A stretch of 64,000 nucleotides of DNA from an uncultured Ignavibacteriales bacterium (GCA_964549765.1 CAZJWR010000009.1:15442-79441), one strand, 5' to 3'; shown: positions 19,178-59,669, counted from the first letter of the stretch. A program made the numbers and translations. The notes: a model not told the origin generated them from the letters alone.

Positions 19178-19538
19178 ATTACTTCATCATAAAACGATAC
19201 GAAGGACAATAGGCTCCATAATTGATATTTTCTGCGGGGAGGAGCGAGGAACGCCACTTTTTATTCTTTCGCCGATAAAATCGATGCTCGCGCCGTCGGG
19301 ACGGTATTTTCGATTTTGCGCCGGGCCGGTCATTTTTTCGTTGACAGTCCGGTGACGGACTTCGTAAATTCCTCGATGTGGCATCGAGGATTCCCGGCAT
19401 AATTATGCAGCCTTCGTTTTGGCATCGATCTTGAATACAACTTAATAACGTGAAAGGGGGGATGTACGGGCGTGTGATAATTCTCCGTTTACGCAAAGGG
19501 GAGTATTAATACGTGACTAACTTCACAGGGAGGTTCTC

Positions 19539-46509: not shown

Positions 46510-46845
46510 ATGATAGAAGATAGAGAACTATTCGATCTGCATGCCGAGTTCTGCAAGCTGATTGCCAGTCCCAGAAGGCTGATGATCATAGAACTCCTGG
46601 CCAGGAAGGAGCTGAGCGTTGGTGAGATTGCTCACGCTCTGGATGTGCCGCATAGCAATGTAAGCCAGCACCTCAGGGTCATGCGCTCGCGTCATATCGT
46701 TGAAGCACGCAGAGACGGGCAGACGGTATACTATAGATTGACCAATGTTCGGCTGCCCGCAGTCTGTGCTGAGATTCGGTCTATCTTGCTGGAAGGTATG
46801 GACATGCGAGGCAAGAAGGCTCGAGGAATGAACAAGAAAAGATGA
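46510..46845 (+). CDS. ArsR/SmtB-family winged-helix transcriptional repressor with two Cys (C15, C86)
   Basis: ASPRRLMIIELLARKELSVGEIAHALDVPHSNVSQHLRVMRSRHIVEARRDGQTVYYRL is the canonical ArsR HTH. The cysteines are at FCKLIASP (before alpha2) and at PAVCAEI (C-terminal helix). Confidence 0.85.
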   Translation: MIEDRELFDLHAEFCKLIASPRRLMIIELLARKELSVGEIAHALDVPHSNVSQHLRVMRSRHIVEARRDGQTVYYRLTNVRLPAVCAEIRSILLEGMDMRGKKARGMNKKR

Positions 46846-46865
46846 AGCATGTTTTTTTTGCGTCG

Positions 46866-46887
46866 TATGTGCAATAATGCGCATATA
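46866..46887 (+). promoter_or_regulatory. Second operator-like 8-6-8 dyad TATGTGCA-N6-CGCATATA (O2) upstream of tusA
   Basis: Same geometry and an identical right half-site to O1. The left half matches 6 of 8. It lies in the 87-nt arsR-tusA gap. Confidence 0.5.
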
Positions 46888-50478: not shown

Positions 50479-52199
50479 CGGAACGAAGGATTGGCGTCTA
50501 CATTTGCCATTGCGGCGGCAACATCTCAGACTATGTTGACGTAGACAGAGTCCGGGAAGGAGTAGCACATGACGAAGGCGTGGTTGTGGCCAAGACGACC
50601 ATGTTTGCGTGTTCTGATGCCGCTCAGGAGGAGATGATCGAGGATATCAGGACCAATAATCTAGACGGCATCGTCATCGCCTCATGTTCTCCGAAGCTTC
50701 ACCTCTTTACGTTCCGTGCGATGGCGGAGCGGGCGGGATTGAATCCATATCAGTACGTGCAGGTTAACCTCAGGGAGCAGGATTCCTGGGCTCATCAACA
50801 TGATTTGGACAGAGCCACCGAGAAAGGGATCAGGCTGGTGAAAGCCGGAATCGCCCGTTGCGCCCTGACCGCTCCTCTCACCACTATGAGAATCGAAACA
50901 ACTCCGAAAGTTCTTGTTATCGGCGCGGGGGTTGCTGGACTGCGAGCGGCGCTCTCGCTTTCCGATATGGGCTTTACCGTTTTCGTTATTGAGAGAGAAG
51001 CTGCCGTCGGGGGGTGGACGGGTCAGTTCGGGGGTATGTTTCCGAACGATCGCATCGGGTCTGATCTTGTGAGCAGTCTATATGCAGATGCCAAGAAGTG
51101 GGACAATATCACAATCTTCACCAGGGCCGAGCTGATTGCGAAAAGCGGCAACGTTGGGGCCTTTGAAGTAGTCATTAATATCAACAAGCGAGAGACTATT
51201 AAGCTCGACGTTGGCACGATCGTTGTGGCGACAGGTTTTGATGTTTACCGGCCGGCAGCCGGTGAATTCGGTTATGGGCAGCCGGGCGTTATCACGCTTC
51301 CGGACTTCAAACAGCTCGTGGACCGTTCGACCGGGCCGCTCACCTACCAGGGCCGCGCAGTAGAAGACATTGCCTACATCTACTGTGTCGGCAGTCGGCA
51401 GTCGGCAGACGGCGACAATGCGAATCGTTACTGTTCACGATACTGCTGTACCGCGGCCGTTCACACCTCTTTGACTATGCACAAGAGAGATGAGACTACG
51501 CACCACTTTCATCTTTATCGCGACATGCGGACATACGGCAAGTATGAGCTGCTGTATCTGGATTCGCTCAACAACGGCTCCGCATTTCTGAAATATGCCG
51601 ACGATGACCCTCCTGCGGTGACTCTCGCGGGAAACAGACTGCGCGTCACGGTGCGCGATCAACTAACTCAGGGAGAGGAATTCGACATCGATGTCGACCT
51701 GGTCGTGCTGGTAACGGGGATGGTGCCGCGAGAAAACAAGAATCTTGTCGACGTCCTCAAACTTCCCATCGCTATGGATGGCTTCTTCAATGAGATCCAT
51801 CCCAAGCTCAGACCGGTTGAGACGGTCATTGATGGGGTCTTCATTGCCGGTGCATCTCAAGGTCCCAAGACACTGGCTGAAAGTGTGGCTTCATCCATGG
51901 CGGCCGTATCAAAGAGCGCCGCACTGCTGATGAAGGGATATGTTGATCTCGAGCCTCTGATCGCTACCATCGACAGCGACAAATGTTCCTGGTGCGATGA
52001 ATGCACAAAGGCGTGCCCATATGATGCCATTGAAAATGTATCCGTGGACGGCGAAGAGGTTGCACGGATCATCCCCGCTCTGTGCAAAGGAGGCGGGGCA
52101 TGTGTTCCCGTGTGTCCGCGCGACGCGATCGAAGTGAAGGGGTACACGGATGCCCAGATAATTGCAACGATTGATTCTCTGATCAAAGAGGTTGGCTGA
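50475..52199 (+). CDS. hdrA: HdrA/QmoB-like FAD and Fe-S flavoprotein with C-terminal 2x[4Fe-4S] ferredoxin domain
   Basis: IGVYICHCGGNISDYVDVD, VLVIGAGVAGLRAALSLSDMGFTVFVIEREAAVGG, IVVATGFDVY, VFIAGASQGPKTLAESV, CSWCDECTKACP, CKGGGACVPVCP. ATGA overlap with the previous gene. Confidence 0.85.
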   Translation: MTERRIGVYICHCGGNISDYVDVDRVREGVAHDEGVVVAKTTMFACSDAAQEEMIEDIRTNNLDGIVIASCSPKLHLFTFRAMAERAGLNPYQYVQVNLREQDSWAHQHDLDRATEKGIRLVKAGIARCALTAPLTTMRIETTPKVLVIGAGVAGLRAALSLSDMGFTVFVIEREAAVGGWTGQFGGMFPNDRIGSDLVSSLYADAKKWDNITIFTRAELIAKSGNVGAFEVVININKRETIKLDVGTIVVATGFDVYRPAAGEFGYGQPGVITLPDFKQLVDRSTGPLTYQGRAVEDIAYIYCVGSRQSADGDNANRYCSRYCCTAAVHTSLTMHKRDETTHHFHLYRDMRTYGKYELLYLDSLNNGSAFLKYADDDPPAVTLAGNRLRVTVRDQLTQGEEFDIDVDLVVLVTGMVPRENKNLVDVLKLPIAMDGFFNEIHPKLRPVETVIDGVFIAGASQGPKTLAESVASSMAAVSKSAALLMKGYVDLEPLIATIDSDKCSWCDECTKACPYDAIENVSVDGEEVARIIPALCKGGGACVPVCPRDAIEVKGYTDAQIIATIDSLIKEVG

Positions 52200-52438
52200 T
52201 GAATAATAGAATTGAGCGCGATACGGCAGAGGCGATGAGGGATGAAATGATGATGAAAGACAAGATTCTCGCTCTCCTGAAAGACGACCCCGGAACGATA
52301 CCTGAGATCGCCCAGGCGCTTGAGTGTTCGACCAGTTCTGTCGTGTACTGGATAATGGCGATGTGGAGATATGGTTCCGTGGAAGCCGTCGGCAAACCGG
52401 ATGACAAAGGATATTACAGGTACCGCCCCGTTTCGTAA
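52199..52438 (+). CDS. Small winged-helix-like protein, unknown role
   Basis: 79 aa. KILALLKDDPGTIPEIAQALECSTSSVVYWIMAMWRYGSVEAVG looks like a wHTH. The start overlaps the hdrA stop (TGATG). Confidence 0.45.
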   Translation: MNNRIERDTAEAMRDEMMMKDKILALLKDDPGTIPEIAQALECSTSSVVYWIMAMWRYGSVEAVGKPDDKGYYRYRPVS

Positions 52439-54181: not shown

Positions 54182-55003
54182 ATGTTTGCTATAGCTATAT
54201 CTCGAGGTTCGCTGAGCGCGGCCTCCAAACTGGCTGAAGGGCTGCAGGCAAAATGGGGCGGGACAATCGTCGCTCGCGAAGAGGTGATCAAAGCGGCCGA
54301 AGCCTTTGGGTTAGAGGAAACAGGACTTCGGGAAGAACATATCCTCGGGCAACACGCCCCCGGATTCTGGGAACGTTACGCCGACGCCCGAAAACACTAC
54401 CTGGCCTGCTTCAGGGCCGCCTTACTTGATTTCGTGCTCAAAGGATCACTGATTTACCACGGCAACCTCGCCCACATCCTTCTCAACAATATTCCTTTCG
54501 TTCTGCGGGTCAGGGTAAACGCCCCGTTCGAAAATCGGGTGAAAATGTTGGTTGCTGAACAGGGCTTGTCGGAGGCAGATGCCGTTGCGAAGATAACGGA
54601 GATTGACAAGCAGAGGAGACGTTGGGTGCAGTTTCTCTACGACGTCGACACGCGGGACCCTATCTTGTTCGATATAGTCCTCAATCTCCAAAGAATGACC
54701 ATTGACGACGCAATTGAGCTGGTCGGCTCTGAGGTGAAGAAAGACCGATTTCAGTCGAGTGAAAAATCCTTGAAGATAGTCCGCGATTTGCACCTGGCAT
54801 CGCTGGCGGAAATCGCTTTGATGCACTCTACCGATACATACGGTCTGGATCTCAGAGTACAAGCAGATGAAAGTACGGGTGAAGTTGTGATTGTCCGGGC
54901 CCCGGAGTTAACAGAGAGTGCAGTCTCCGACGACGTTATTCGAGCCGCCCTGGAAAATGTGAAGGAAATCAAGAACGTCCTAATCGGAAAGACGCCCGAC
55001 TAG
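54182..55003 (+). CDS. Cytidylate-kinase-like family protein with BON-like C-terminus (third paralog)
   Basis: AIAISRGSLSAASKLAEGLQAKWGGTIVAREEVI, YHGNLAHILL...LRVRVNAPFENRVKMLV...RRRWVQFLYDVDTRDPILFDIVLNL. C-terminus LRVQADESTGEVVIVRAPELTE...ENVKEIKNVLI. Confidence 0.7.
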   Translation: MFAIAISRGSLSAASKLAEGLQAKWGGTIVAREEVIKAAEAFGLEETGLREEHILGQHAPGFWERYADARKHYLACFRAALLDFVLKGSLIYHGNLAHILLNNIPFVLRVRVNAPFENRVKMLVAEQGLSEADAVAKITEIDKQRRRWVQFLYDVDTRDPILFDIVLNLQRMTIDDAIELVGSEVKKDRFQSSEKSLKIVRDLHLASLAEIALMHSTDTYGLDLRVQADESTGEVVIVRAPELTESAVSDDVIRAALENVKEIKNVLIGKTPD

Positions 55004-55116
55004 AACGAAGTGGCGGTCGTCACATCCGGTTACCGGTCAACACTTGCCACGGATACTGAGCTGATACGGTATCTCCTTGACGATTGGGCCATCGCCTAAA
55101 CTCCGGAGTGGGACAA

Positions 55117-56472
55117 ATGGAACATGAACAGGAAGATTCTCAGTGTGACAAGCTTGTCACCGTCGTTGACAGTATCTCCGATGGTGTTCTTGCTGTCGAC
55201 CTTGACAGGCGCATAACGTTTATGAATCAGGCTGCCGCGCGTATCTCCGGCTATTCTCCGGACGAGGCCATGGGTAAACATTGCTGGGAGGTTTTTCACA
55301 CCAACGTATGCGAAGACAGTTGCCCGCTCAAACGTGCCATGAATGGTGCGGCCTCAACCGTCAACAGGCCCGTATGTATTACTAATAAAGAGGGTAAGCG
55401 CGTCCCGGTAAGCATCTCGGCAACGCTGTTGAGGGATCGACGGGGGACAATAATAGGCGGCGTAGAGACTCTCCGAGACCTTGACCTGGTCAGGCAGTTG
55501 CAACGGGAGTATGAGTCACAGTACGTTTTTGAGGATATGATGAGCCGCAGCAAGAAGGTGAGAGATATCTTCGATATCATTCCGGCCATAGCAGAGAGCG
55601 AAAGCACGGTTCTCATTGAAGGTGAAAGCGGAACCGGAAAGGAACTTATTGCCAGGGCAATTCATAACCTCAGTCCCCGGAAAGATGGACCCTTTGTCGC
55701 GCTCAACTGCGGGGCTATTCCCGACAATCTCCTTGAGTCCGAGCTTTTTGGCTATGTAGCAGGCGCCTTTACGGATGCAAAGAAAGACAAAAAGGGGAGG
55801 TTTGCAATCGCCGCAGGAGGTACTTTGCTCCTGGATGAGATTGGCGATGTGTCTCAGGCGATGCAGGCCAAACTGCTGCGTGTACTTCAAGAAAAACTCT
55901 ATGAACCATTGGGCGCAACAGAATCTGCGGCCTCCGACGTTCGCGTATTAGCAGCGACAAACAAGAGGTTGGATGACCTTGTAGAGAAGGGTAGTTTCCG
56001 AAGAGATCTGTATTATCGCATTAACGTCATGCGCGTGCGGCTGCCTTCATTGAGGGAAAGAAGAGAAGATATCCCCCTGCTGGCCGACCACTTCGTTGAT
56101 CGATTCAACCGTCTTCACCATAAAAACGTCCCGGGGTTCTCACCTCCGGCCCTGGGGCTACTTCTGAATCATGATTTCCCCGGGAATGTCAGAGAACTGG
56201 AGAACATCGTCGAGCATGCGTCGGTGCTGTGCGGCGAAGGCATAATAAGGCCGGAACATCTTCCCGAGTATCTGAGGGGCGACCGACCGGTTCCAGCCAT
56301 AGAAATCGCAGGAACGTTTGCCGAGATGGAAGCTCTGTTCCTGATTGGAGCTTTGAAAAGGAACAATTGGTCGCGCAAAGATACTGCCGCAGAAATCGGC
56401 ATCAATCCCTCCACACTCTATAGAAAAATCAAAAAACTCGGTTTGAAACTGCCACCAAGCCAGGAACAATAA
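55117..56472 (+). CDS. Sigma-54-dependent transcriptional activator (PAS, AAA+, Fis-type HTH)
   Basis: PAS: ITFMNQAAARISGYSPDEAMGKHCWEVF. AAA+: VLIEGESGTGKELIARAIH, ESELFGYVAGAFTDA, GGTLLLDEIG, RVLAATN, FRRDLYYRI. HTH: RKDTAAEIGINPSTLYRKIKKLGL. Confidence 0.9.
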   Translation: MEHEQEDSQCDKLVTVVDSISDGVLAVDLDRRITFMNQAAARISGYSPDEAMGKHCWEVFHTNVCEDSCPLKRAMNGAASTVNRPVCITNKEGKRVPVSISATLLRDRRGTIIGGVETLRDLDLVRQLQREYESQYVFEDMMSRSKKVRDIFDIIPAIAESESTVLIEGESGTGKELIARAIHNLSPRKDGPFVALNCGAIPDNLLESELFGYVAGAFTDAKKDKKGRFAIAAGGTLLLDEIGDVSQAMQAKLLRVLQEKLYEPLGATESAASDVRVLAATNKRLDDLVEKGSFRRDLYYRINVMRVRLPSLRERREDIPLLADHFVDRFNRLHHKNVPGFSPPALGLLLNHDFPGNVRELENIVEHASVLCGEGIIRPEHLPEYLRGDRPVPAIEIAGTFAEMEALFLIGALKRNNWSRKDTAAEIGINPSTLYRKIKKLGLKLPPSQEQ

Positions 56473-56492
56473 AAGACACCGCACATCCTACC

Positions 56493-56537
56493 GTGCGAAA
56501 TTGCATATCGTCATGTTATTGGTCGTGCGTTTCTGCA
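56493..56537 (+). promoter_or_regulatory. Two copies of a GTGCG-N4-TGCA dyad-like motif (candidate enhancer/UAS for the sigma-54 activator)
   Basis: GTGCGAAATTGCA (56493-56505) and GTGCGTTTCTGCA (56525-56537). Their starts are 32 bp apart, and they lie 112-156 bp upstream of the -24 element. Confidence 0.45.
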
Positions 56538-56648
56538 CGATCGTAATATATACCCCTGATCATACGCCTCCAACACAACTTGCTTGCGCATCCATATCTG
56601 CCGACTATTCAATGAGATAGATGGCCTCAGAACCGTTGTCGATGCTGT

Positions 56649-56664
56649 TGGCACATCTTATGCA
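56649..56664 (+). promoter_or_regulatory. Sigma-54 (-24/-12) promoter
   Basis: TGGCAC-ATCTT-ATGCA versus the consensus TGGCAC-N5-TTGCA. GG to GC spacing is exact. It lies about 40 nt upstream of AAGGAG plus ATG 56705. Confidence 0.7.
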
Positions 56665-56704
56665 TGGGACCACTTCAGTGATAGTGATGAGAAAGGAGCA
56701 AGAT

Positions 56705-57058
56705 ATGATAGGACTTGATCGACTGATGGAGATTGAAGGGGTTGTCGGGGCAGGACAATTCTCCGAAGACGGACATATCATCAGACAGGTCGGCCAAATG
56801 TCCGATGACTTGATGGGAAGCGCCGAACTCTGCGTGCGCCAGAATCAGTTCAGCCAGCATTTTCTGGAGTCTCTCAATGATAAACTGCCTCGAGACTACG
56901 GATCGTTGATCGGTTGGATCATCTGGGGTAGCAAGTTCTCCGTGGTCGTTGTCGGCAACACACGAGTGTTTGTTCAGACCACCCGCGGCGACTACAATCA
57001 ACTGATGATAGACCTGACTGGTTCCGAAGCGACAGGACCGCGTCCCCTCAATTGCTAG
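56705..57058 (+). CDS. Roadblock/LC7-like small protein (DUF2173-like)
   Basis: 117 aa from an SD-preceded ATG. LDRLMEIEGVVGAGQFSEDGHIIRQVG... resembles roadblock-fold DUF2173 proteins (assigned from memory). Confidence 0.45.
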   Translation: MIGLDRLMEIEGVVGAGQFSEDGHIIRQVGQMSDDLMGSAELCVRQNQFSQHFLESLNDKLPRDYGSLIGWIIWGSKFSVVVVGNTRVFVQTTRGDYNQLMIDLTGSEATGPRPLNC

Positions 57059-57127
57059 CTACTGGCGAGGAGTAAGTGAGGTCTTTTTTGATTTGCTAAA
57101 CTGTAACGCCTTAAGGAGGTAACTGAA

Positions 57128-57319
57128 ATGACTGAAAAGAAAAAAGAAGAAGTGCAACTGGGCCATGGTGTCTACCATCCAGGCGCTCGGCCGATGGAAG
57201 TGCTCCTCGACAAGGACGGTTGCATGTGGCTCTGCGACAAAGGGGTGGACCCGAAGAAGAACTTCGAGGAACAGGGTTGCTGGCGTTGTAAAGATCTTCA
57301 GTTTACTCGCAACGACTGA
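57128..57319 (+). CDS. Small Cys-rich hypothetical protein (C-x4-C ... C-x2-C)
   Basis: Strong SD TAAGGAGGT 7 nt upstream. 63 aa with GCMWLCDKG...GCWRCKD. Confidence 0.45.
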   Translation: MTEKKKEEVQLGHGVYHPGARPMEVLLDKDGCMWLCDKGVDPKKNFEEQGCWRCKDLQFTRND

Positions 57320-57540
57320 TCCCGTATTGCTTATCATGAGTACACCACGATTCAGCAGAGAGCGAGGTCGTCGAGCCAAACGCACGGCAGCCTCGCTCAA
57401 CCAGCGGCTTAGCCTGTCCAGAGTCACCCTTGTGGTGAGCAGGCGATGTCGGCCACGAGCAGTGACGGCGTGGCAATCGGGTTGTGCCAGCGGGCAAACG
57501 TACCCGCATGCCCAACTTGAGTTGTGAGGAGATAATTAGA

Positions 57541-57975
57541 ATGAGGGTCAATTTGACGCAGATAAGTGGTCTCGCCATGGCCGCCTGCGGCGATTCCAGT
57601 CACTGGGTTACGATGGATGGACCCCGGGAGTACGGTGGCTTTTCAGCGGGATCGCGTCCCATGGAGGTATTGCTGATGGGATTGGCCGGATGTACGGCTA
57701 TGGACGTGATTTCCATTCTAAGAAAGAAAAGAGTATCGCTGGCCGGGTTCACTCTGGACGTCGAAGCATCGCAGGCGGAGCAACACCCCAAGGTATTTAC
57801 GGAAATCAGGCTTCATTACCTCTTTTCGGGGACACACATTCGCCCCAATGATGTGGAGCGGGCTATAGAGTTAAGTGAGCACAAATACTGCAGTGCAATT
57901 GCCATGCTGGAACAGAGTGTAAAGATCACTCACGATTACCAGATTGACGAGGTCAATAGCCAATCCGCAAACTGA
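57541..57975 (+). CDS. OsmC/Ohr-family peroxiredoxin-like protein
   Basis: GSRPMEVLLMGLAGCTAMDVISILRK...HKYCSAIAML carries the two conserved Cys of OsmC. GAGGAG SD before ATG 57541. Confidence 0.85.
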   Translation: MRVNLTQISGLAMAACGDSSHWVTMDGPREYGGFSAGSRPMEVLLMGLAGCTAMDVISILRKKRVSLAGFTLDVEASQAEQHPKVFTEIRLHYLFSGTHIRPNDVERAIELSEHKYCSAIAMLEQSVKITHDYQIDEVNSQSAN

Positions 57976-58180
57976 CCTGTCGAGTCGGAAAGAAACGAGT
58001 CCGCTGAGTTGTATCATGCCAAGAGACGAGCAGTTTGATAGGAGTACCAAAGAGTATGAGCACTGGTTTGAGGCGCATCGGGCTGTCTATTCTGGTTATA
58101 AGGGGAATCAAGGAAAGGGAAAGGCCGTGACAGGGTTGGAGCAAGCCGTAGCCTCGTCTTCGGTATGAGGAGAAAAGACA

Positions 58181-59164
58181 ATGTACGTCTATGGTCCGGT
58201 ACCATCCCGAAGACTCGGAGCTTCACTGGGTGTCAGTCCCATCCCAGCCAAGACGTGCTCATACACGTGTGTCTATTGTCAACTCGGTAGAACCACCAAT
58301 CTGACGGTAAGTCGATACAGCTTCTTTCCGAGGGAGGACATCCTTGGGGAAATACTGTACAAAGGCACGAAGGCGACGCTTGATTACGTCACCTTCGTCG
58401 GAGACGGGGAGCCCACTCTGTGTAAAGATCTGGGCTGGCTCATTGAGCAAACGAAGAAGAACCTGACGGCCCGAACAGCCGTAATCACCAACGGCTCCCT
58501 GCTCTTTCTCGACGATGTCAGGTTGGATCTTGGCGCCGCCGACCTAGTCATGCCTTCGCTGGATGCGGGGAATGAAAAAACCTTCAGAGCCGTCAACCGA
58601 CCACATCGCAGTATCACCTATGAGAAGATGCTGCAGGGGCTTATAGGCTTCCGTCACGAATACTCCGGACAAATATGGCTCGAGGTGATGTTGGTGAAGG
58701 GGGTGAATGATACTGAAGAGGAGTTGCGAAGTATCGCGAAGGCCGTACGTCTGGTTGCTCCCGATCGGGTGTATGTCGTCACGCCGATTCGCCCTCCGGC
58801 AGAATCTTGGGTTAAACCGCCAGCCCCCGAGACCATTATTATGGCTCAGGAGTTAATCGGGAAAACCATACCCATGGTTGGCCGGGAATCCGGTAAATTT
58901 GATTTGGAGGGTTATCGCGACGCCCGTCAGGCAATCCTAGAGATTGGCGCTCGACACCCCTTGCGGTCTGATCAAATTGCAGAAATTGAAAGTAAACTCG
59001 CTGTTTCCAGAGTAGTCGAACAAATGATTCAGAAGGGAGAACTGATCCGGACGGAATACGGTGGAATAACTTACCTACTCCCGGGGAATTTTGTCAGGGG
59101 AACGGTGAAGAGCGCAGAGAAAGGAGGAGAGGATAATGAACGCCGTAAGGGTGAACGTAAATGA
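58181..59164 (+). CDS. Radical SAM protein, unknown substrate
   Basis: CSYTCVYCQLG (CxxxCxxC) near the N-terminus. GDGEPTL and NGSLL motifs. Confidence 0.8.
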   Translation: MYVYGPVPSRRLGASLGVSPIPAKTCSYTCVYCQLGRTTNLTVSRYSFFPREDILGEILYKGTKATLDYVTFVGDGEPTLCKDLGWLIEQTKKNLTARTAVITNGSLLFLDDVRLDLGAADLVMPSLDAGNEKTFRAVNRPHRSITYEKMLQGLIGFRHEYSGQIWLEVMLVKGVNDTEEELRSIAKAVRLVAPDRVYVVTPIRPPAESWVKPPAPETIIMAQELIGKTIPMVGRESGKFDLEGYRDARQAILEIGARHPLRSDQIAEIESKLAVSRVVEQMIQKGELIRTEYGGITYLLPGNFVRGTVKSAEKGGEDNERRKGERK

Positions 59165-59471
59165 TCTGGAATGGAGCGGAGCCGCAGAATACCCAACTGG
59201 AACCGAGGAAAAGGTACTCAGTATAGGGGGCAACATCGCACCCCGAGCCATTATGCTCAAGTTGCCCCCGGGATGGAGAATGGACAGTCATTCTCACCGG
59301 TTCACGGAACTCCATTATGTGCTCGAGGGCCAAGTTGAGAGTCAGGGACAGAAATACGCGGCCGGAACTTTCCGGGTGATCCCGAAAGAAGTCGAACATG
59401 GGCCATACAGCTCAGAAACAGGCGCTATCGTACTGGTGATCTGGTGCTCTTTAACCGAAGGGGGACAATGA
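59136..59471 (+). CDS. Cupin-domain protein
   Basis: HSHRFTELHYVLEGQ...PKEVEHGP (cupin motifs 1 and 2). AAGGAGGAG SD. 29-nt overlap with the radical SAM gene. Confidence 0.7.
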   Translation: MNAVRVNVNDLEWSGAAEYPTGTEEKVLSIGGNIAPRAIMLKLPPGWRMDSHSHRFTELHYVLEGQVESQGQKYAAGTFRVIPKEVEHGPYSSETGAIVLVIWCSLTEGGQ

Positions 59472-59669
59472 GGGAAACAAGACTGACGGACAAAATGCGC
59501 CTTGGTCAAGTCCAGTTTGACGATCTTCTTCCTGGTGGTTTGCCAAGTCGCTCCTCTACTACTAATAGTTGCCTTGTAAATCCATTGATAAGTGCTGTCA
59601 TATTAGCTGCATGGCTGTTGCGCGGAGGGAGTGATCTGTCCCGGCTATCGTCAAGCGCTAATGCCTTAA

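Follow-up and report, generated by a model that had tools for sequence, protein, structure and literature searches.

Genes and sites at the locus

The window, that is, the whole 64,000-nt stretch of DNA analysed here, carries between positions 55117 and 59471 the gene for a sigma-54 activator, followed on the same strand by further genes, the first of which is preceded by a set of short sites:

55117-56472, plus strand: single-component sigma-54 activator, PAS-AAA+-HTH_8 by its Pfam domains
56494-56505, no strand: UAS1, the distal dyad, TGCGAAATTGCA, centre about 150 bp upstream of the -24 GG
56523-56540, no strand: UAS2, the proximal dyad, TCGTGCGTTTCTGCACGA, with the core TGC-N6-GCA at 56526-56537 and its centre 118 bp upstream of the GG
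56607-56619, plus strand: IHF-like site ATTCAATGAGATA, matching 7 of the 9 specified positions of WATCARNNNNTTR, centre 37 bp upstream of the GG
56649-56664, plus strand: -24/-12 element TGGCACATCTTATGCA, with GG at 56650-51, GC at 56662-63 and 10 bases between them
56693-56698, plus strand: Shine-Dalgarno sequence AAGGAG, 6 nt before ATG 56705
56705-57058, plus strand: DUF2173 protein of 117 aa (Pfam DUF2173, 9.5e-20), first gene of the putative unit
57128-57319, plus strand: orf63, a Cys/His-rich protein of 63 aa, second gene of the putative unit, with its own AAGGAGG at 57113-57119
57541-57975, plus strand: OsmC-like protein (Pfam)
58181-59164, plus strand: radical SAM protein (Pfam)
59136-59471, plus strand: cupin (Pfam)

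For comparison, 46 loci with a DUF2173 relative were obtained by scanning one genome per species; they span Zixibacteria, MAGs labelled Ignavibacteria, Gemmatimonadota, LCP-89, Myxococcota, Deltaproteobacteria and others, and single loci are referred to by L and a number. No paper tying Zixibacteria to sigma-54 was found in the literature, and PMC12316311 does not include that phylum.

The reading frame of the activator opens at TTG 55084 and has its first ATG at 55117, which gives a protein of 451-462 aa. Pfam recognizes PAS_4/PAS_9, Sigma54_activat (E 3e-67, profile positions 2-167 of 168), AAA_lid_14 and HTH_8; the protein carries the Walker A and B motifs GESGTGKE and LLLDEIG, a GAFTDA loop and a C-terminal HTH. 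Its PAS domain contains the cysteine motif C-X8-C-X3-C, here C-WEVFHTNV-C-EDS-C with E at +2 (the cysteines are residues 56, 65 and 69 counted from ATG 55117), and both the Cys triad and GAFTDA are kept in most of 31 orthologues. An RpoN box was found neither in six-frame translations of the window nor in those of the 46 related loci; the one feature that implies rpoN in the genome is the activator's intact Sigma54_activat domain.

An earlier note on this DNA had argued that the first downstream gene begins at ATG 56705 and not at 56621, and this correction holds, because nearly all homologues of the DUF2173 protein are of 117 aa and begin MIGLDRLM; in addition to the AAGGAG found here, an equivalent GGAG precedes every orthologous DUF2173 ATG. 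The same note had called the product roadblock-like, which stands for the fold and fails for the sequence: an AlphaFold model (pLDDT 74.5) retrieves with Foldseek, as top matches in the PDB, Ragulator (LAMTOR), Roadblock and MglB chains with a probability of 1.00 and TM scores of 0.6-0.68, and it displays the alpha-beta-beta-alpha-beta-beta-beta(-alpha) arrangement of solved Roadblock proteins, whereas matches of the sequence to the PDB are insignificant. A Roadblock/LC7/MglB fold is thus predicted for the DUF2173 protein, the likeness being one of fold only.

The product of orf63 has no match in Pfam or NCBIfam. Alignment of its homologues reveals the conserved residues H..ARPM..LCDK..Q-x-C-W-x-C, with an invariant His and three conserved Cys; the family has at least 734 homologues, all of about 62-64 aa, annotated as hypothetical and devoid of a Pfam domain, and looks like an unrecognized small metal- or Fe-S-binding family. 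Homologues of orf63 are present in 33 loci, orf63 follows DUF2173 in 32 loci, and the order activator, DUF2173, orf63 on one strand is seen in about 30. The two genes are separated by 69 nt in the window, each has a strong Shine-Dalgarno sequence, and together they appear to make up the part of the downstream unit that is always conserved.

Co-transcription through the OsmC-like, radical SAM and cupin genes to 59471, which the earlier note had considered, is possible but unproven. In the intervening spacers of 221 nt (57320-57540) and 205 nt (57976-58180) neither an intrinsic terminator nor a second sigma-54 site was found; what would argue for the extension is the recurrent radical SAM/cupin synteny, the pair lying near the module in 16-19 loci. 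The OsmC gene directly follows orf63 in L020 and L030.

The spacers themselves gave rise to two side observations. The first, 57320-57540, folds with -97.7 kcal/mol, which is more stable than its shuffles (z = -4.06), and contains a GC-rich hairpin of 9 bp that lacks a U-tract; neither an Rfam match nor similarity to the related loci was found for this spacer. Since Rfam returned nothing credible over 55000-59600, there is no indication of a riboswitch or leader RNA. Around the second, at 57944-58168 (plus strand), tblastx detects the remnant of a SAM-dependent methyltransferase, some 25 codons from its N-terminus (..YEHWFE..); this spacer also matches L007, L009 and L044, and in L003 the methyltransferase gene is intact before the radical SAM gene (Pfam-checked ORF). 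It appears that a methyltransferase gene was deleted between the OsmC-like and radical SAM genes.

Upstream of the activator gene the window encodes HdrA, HdrC, HdrB-like, DsrE-like, cytidylate-kinase-like and MvhD-like proteins. Across the loci, the genes that recur beside the module code for cupin, radical SAM, ArsP_2 permease, MvhD, HdrA-like fusion, TusA, HdrA and methyltransferase proteins; the setting of the module is one of sulfur, thiol and Fe-S redox chemistry. A 79-aa winged-helix (HTH_27) ORF at 52199-52438 (plus strand), between the HdrA and HdrC genes, recurs in 7 loci and may be a small regulator within the Hdr cluster.

Promoter, dyads and IHF-type site in the window and in related loci

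The -24/-12 element agrees with TGGCAC-N5-TTGCW at 10 of the 11 specified positions, the -12 region reading ATGCA and so differing from TTGCA; it is intergenic, points at the DUF2173 gene and lies 56 nt upstream of ATG 56705. The match alone is weak evidence, because a single-motif scan of the 64-kb window for TGGCACN5TTGCW with up to 1 mismatch gave 2 matches against 1.4 expected, a number that is not significant by itself. The other match, TGGCAATCAGCTTGCA at 46552-46567 on the minus strand, lies inside overlapping ORFs (46510-46845 on the plus and 46528-46884 on the minus strand) and was treated as chance. A position weight matrix trained on 39 orthologous promoters, from which the window was excluded, is more discriminating: scanned over both strands of the window it ranks the site at 56649-56664 first, with 18.6 bits, a score reached by 3 of 100 simulated sequences. 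From the usual distance between -12 and +1 we infer a transcription start near 56674-56677.

The second-best match to the matrix, TTTGGCATCGATCTTGAATA at 19418-19437 (plus strand, 16.1 bits), is also intergenic and lies about 105 nt upstream of ATG 19539, the start of a 1275-aa ORF which by eye resembles a secreted S8-type peptidase. It may be a second sigma-54 promoter, though one without an adjacent activator gene.

The two dyads follow the activator gene closely, UAS1 starting 21 nt past its stop codon. The related sites GTGCGAAATTGCA (56493-56505) and GTGCGTTTCTGCA (56525-56537) are 32 bp apart from start to start and have the core TGC-N6-GCA in common, which in UAS2 is extended to a perfect 18-bp palindrome frame, TCGTGC-N6-GCACGA, at 56523-56540. 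A pair of TGC-N6-GCA sites 25-40 bp apart occurs only once in the 64-kb window, with 0.045 expected. It was considered whether the dyads are the terminator of the activator gene; this was rejected, as their arms are short and a T-run is absent, and the sole terminator-like match near them is on the opposite strand.

In 41 of the 46 loci a -24/-12-like element is found 51-61 nt upstream of the orthologous ATG, as compared to 4.9% of control windows, the count being made in the same 40-nt zone upstream of that ATG throughout; the strict form GGCAY-N5-NTGC is present in 26 of 46 loci and in 0.45% of controls. As the loci are phylogenetically related, binomial P values for such conservation overstate independence. 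With its sequence confirmed, its position conserved across loci and the top matrix score on either strand, the sigma-54 promoter proposed in the earlier note can be upheld.

The same is true of the two phased upstream dyads, whose geometry is conserved in the relatives. For these, motifs were counted, because offsets of 1-3 bp blur the dyads in an ungapped alignment anchored on the GG. Two perfect dyads are present in 20 of the 47 sequences (46 loci and the window) and at least one in 30; most sequences without two perfect dyads have a second copy with one mismatch. Of the 20 sequences with two perfect copies, 19 have them 31-33 bp apart, and in about 20 loci the centre of the proximal dyad lies at a distance of 117-120 bp from the GG. 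The density of TGC-N6-GCA is 18.5-fold higher between -300 and -70 than in the rest of the loci, and the motif is found at the UAS1 position in most loci from Zixibacteria, LCP-89 and Gemmatimonadota; over 52 dyad sites the consensus is t-c/a-g/t-TGC-R-wwww-T-GCA-c-g-a. In most loci the dyads start about 20 nt after the activator stop codon. The remaining intergenic spacer cannot be aligned among the loci, and conserved elements in an otherwise unalignable spacer are the pattern expected when purifying selection acts on discrete elements.

Between dyads and promoter lies an element that is absent from the earlier note, a conserved site that appears to be of the IHF type. In the orthologues the best matches to WATCARNNNNTTR gather between -33 and -38 relative to the GG; perfect matches are found in 8 of 40 orthologues versus 0.2% of control windows, matches at 8 or more of the 9 positions in 18 of 40 versus 4.3%, and the comparison of orthologues with controls gives a Mann-Whitney P of 2e-13. 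The copy in the window is degenerate (7/9), yet it is at the position typical of the orthologues.

Several loci depart from the common layout. In L003, L005, L009, L013, L015, L012, L027, L035 and L037 the TGC at -12 is replaced by TGA or TGT while TGGCAY is kept at -24 (TGGCACGATTATTGAT is an example of an orthologous promoter with altered -12 GC), an unusually frequent exception to the “invariant” GC. In L021 and L022, orf63 is divergent and comes with a separate dyad pair and a near-perfect sigma-54 promoter, TGGCAYAGCTCTTGCT; in L018 a dyad pair lies behind the reversed activator gene, upstream of orf63, together with a sigma-54 promoter. In all three, orf63 has been separated from DUF2173 and is read in the opposite direction; the regions concerned, all on the minus strand, are:

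L021, 5392-5650: split-off orf63 region
L022, 5391-5650: split-off orf63 region
L018, 3781-4120: split-off orf63 region

This layout recalls the divergent orp operons. In L002, L019 and L045, a DUF2173 copy without sigma-54 promoter or dyads lies close behind another gene, the upstream sequence ATGAGATACGACACGGCGCATAGCCGCC.. being common to the three; in L002, the opposite strand carries a further DUF2173-orf63 pair. These copies look like a paralogous context.

Proposed mechanism and alternative readings

Most likely, the neighbouring activator, by its motifs a protein of the redox-sensor type, switches on two small proteins via the promoter at 56649-56664. In such a mechanism, sigma-54 RNA polymerase would form a closed complex on TGGCAC-N5-ATGCA, and the activator would bind both TGC-N6-GCA palindromes through its C-terminal Fis-type HTH; the dyads are three helical turns apart and would therefore be on the same face of the DNA. 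The bound activator would form an AAA+ ring, and bending of the DNA by an IHF-type protein, placed some 37 bp upstream of the GG, would let the GAFTDA loops of the ring reach sigma-54. ATP hydrolysis would then open the promoter, with transcription beginning near 56675 and the transcript covering at least DUF2173 and orf63, perhaps also the OsmC-like, radical SAM and cupin genes. By analogy to OrpR, an Fe-S cluster in the PAS domain would permit activation only at low redox potential. Taken in full and including the redox signal, the reading of 56494-56664 as a conserved sigma-54 enhancer promoter with an OrpR-like activator is the best explanation available, and one that can be held with good confidence.

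The signal is the step for which an alternative carries most weight. OrpR (DVU2106) of Desulfovibrio vulgaris Hildenborough has C52, C61 and C65 in its PAS domain, with D/E at position 54; the domain holds a [4Fe-4S] cluster, the protein is active only at low redox potential, and OrpR without the PAS domain or the cysteines is constitutively active (PMC8359166). By analogy, the PAS domain of the activator described here probably holds a redox-sensitive Fe-S cluster. With the architecture left as described, the Cys triad might instead sense a sulfur compound (persulfide, polysulfide, thiol-disulfide) or a metal, and not Fe-S redox potential; this deserves to be kept in mind as a minor possibility. 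The TusA, DsrE and Hdr-like neighbourhood of the window fits a sulfur species as signal equally well, and across loci the module is repeatedly found among genes for TusA, DsrE, MvhD, HdrA-like proteins, HdrABC, thioredoxin, ArsP_2 permease and Mrp/NBP35. Further, the sole paper found on DUF2173 describes, for Sulfolobaceae, expression next to hdr genes that is strongly induced by elemental sulfur; the protein studied there is, however, described as a membrane protein, whereas that of the window is soluble and of 117 aa. Against a sulfur signal also stands that the very protein in which [4Fe-4S] redox sensing was demonstrated shares C-X8-C-X3-C, the acidic residue at +2 and GAFTDA.

A tentative and rather improbable extension concerns the role of the products. 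Activator, DUF2173 and orf63 might form a self-contained signalling module spanning several phyla, in which the small proteins are feedback partners of the activator and not effectors, modulating the AAA+ ring or relaying a sulfur or redox signal; elsewhere, the Roadblock fold regulates NTPases. If true, this would tie sulfur metabolism of the Hdr/TusA/DsrE type to sigma-54 control in uncultivated lineages.

It is also conceivable, and decidedly unlikely, that the promoter is real while the dyads are operators for another protein, such as a repressor or a regulator of the Hdr/TusA/DsrE genes, so that the adjacent activator would bind elsewhere or nowhere. Short TGC..GCA palindromes are generic HTH targets, and the window holds other small wHTH ORFs, that at 52199-52438 among them. 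Yet the dyads stay at a fixed, enhancer-like 117-120 bp from the -24 element and in tandem at three turns, always adjoin the activator gene and accompany sigma-54 promoters even after gene rearrangement. In addition, the recognition region of the activator and the dyad vary together across clades, in four classes:

HTH INPSTLYRKIKK: dyad TGC-N6-GCA, most loci
HTH IHKATLYRK: dyad TCGC-N6-GCGA, L033 and L036
HTH IHKTTLFRK: dyad GTAGC..GCTAC, L028
HTH RKM.(R/K)Y: dyad TGCA-N3-TGCA, L032, L034, L035, L037 and L038

The tandem spacing of 31-33 bp is preserved in all four. Because the dyads adjoin the gene, the classes co-vary and the module moves as a unit, these observations point to the adjacent activator, rather than another protein, as the one that binds the dyads.

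That the -24/-12 match and the dyads are mere chance in an AT-balanced spacer, with DUF2173 transcribed by sigma-70 polymerase from a promoter of its own or by continuation of the activator transcript, could be argued from the 1.4 consensus matches expected per window and a weak sigma-70-like site at 56443-56470, but is untenable in the light of the related loci: the position of the element is kept in 41 of 46, the element has the top matrix score and the dyad pair is unique in the window, while sigma-70-like sites are no commoner than in shuffles.

Significance and comparison with known systems

The favoured reading, a sigma-54 enhancer promoter aided by IHF and served by a sensor-activator of the OrpR-like kind, describes a known, indeed textbook, mechanism; its value is mainly in annotation and in the reconstruction of regulons in uncultivated phyla. 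It gives a candidate phylum without genetics a high-confidence regulatory assignment, consisting of predicted activator, motif, bend site, promoter and targets, and corrects a gene start. Two families of unknown function, DUF2173 and orf63, become tied to a defined switch amid Hdr/TusA/DsrE genes, the class of OrpR-type activators (Cys-triad PAS, GAFTDA) would reach well beyond sulfate reducers, and the four co-varying HTH/operator classes are material for studying the binding specificity of enhancer-binding proteins.

With NtrC and glnAp2, the locus has in common the sigma-54 promoter, two phased dyads about 110-150 bp upstream and DNA looping, which here is a proposal. NtrC itself belongs to the response regulators, possesses a receiver domain and recognizes TGCACC-N5-GGTGCA. 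The earlier note had likened the dyads to NtrC-type enhancer sites; the comparison with NtrC cannot be kept, as the dyad frame here is TGC-N6-GCA and the activator has no receiver domain, its N-terminal sensor being a PAS domain. In the NCBIfam ntrC model it scores 296, far below the cut-off of 559, and it stays under the cut-off of every named equivalog in that collection.

The IHF-assisted sigma-54 promoters nifH, Pu and orp likewise have an element of the WATCARNNNNTTR type at a fixed distance between enhancer and promoter; as compared to these, the putative element in the window is a 7/9 match only.

The closest parallel is OrpR. It differs from the present system in its binding motif, GGGCGYRTTTTGCGCCC, as opposed to the TGC-N6-GCA dyads described here; since that motif is different, the Fe-S step draws on a short cysteine motif and on domain architecture. 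In contrast to orp, two tandem sites serve one promoter here, the activator gene is co-oriented and upstream, and the host, judged from named homologues of the DUF2173 protein, has a genome of the Zixibacteria type. The genes that mark the orp regulon, those for orange protein, Mrp and the MinD-ferredoxin ATPases, are not the putative targets in the window, which are DUF2173, orf63, OsmC, radical SAM and cupin; the window lacks orange protein and MinD/ferredoxin ATPase genes. The D. vulgaris genes orp7 (DVU2107) and orp5 (DVU2105) were considered as possible homologues of DUF2173 or orf63; profile searches with orf63 and with distant members of DUF2173 gave no Desulfovibrio entry among the 120 matches listed. 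The neighbourhood of L028 (Deltaproteobacteria) was considered as an orp locus and rejected; it shows thioredoxin, ArsP_2, TPR and disulfide oxidoreductase genes, and no orp genes.

The likeness is nevertheless extensive. Both activators are single-component PAS-AAA+-HTH proteins with C-X8-C-X3-C cysteines in the PAS domain, an acidic residue at +2 and, in place of GAFTGA, the loop GAFTDA, with which DVU2106 is listed as well (PMC4641369). In both systems the activator gene adjoins its targets, putative ones here, which include small, probably metal-binding proteins, and upstream palindromes are separated from the -24/-12 element by an IHF-type site, in the window a putative one, as reported for the palindromic and IHF sites of OrpR and its sigma-54 promoters (PMC3897727); the dependence of OrpR on sigma-54, IHF and the palindrome is experimental. 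An orp-like divergent layout is found in some relatives (L021, L022, L018 and L026), and a gene for an Mrp/NBP35 ATPase, reminiscent of orp9, lies near the module in 5 loci and directly after orf63 in L013. By motif and architecture the activator may thus be called OrpR-like, a likeness that does not extend to demonstrated orthology; because the Cys triad, GAFTDA, palindromes and IHF-type sites match what was reported for OrpR, the system of the window would be expected to work like the orp switch.
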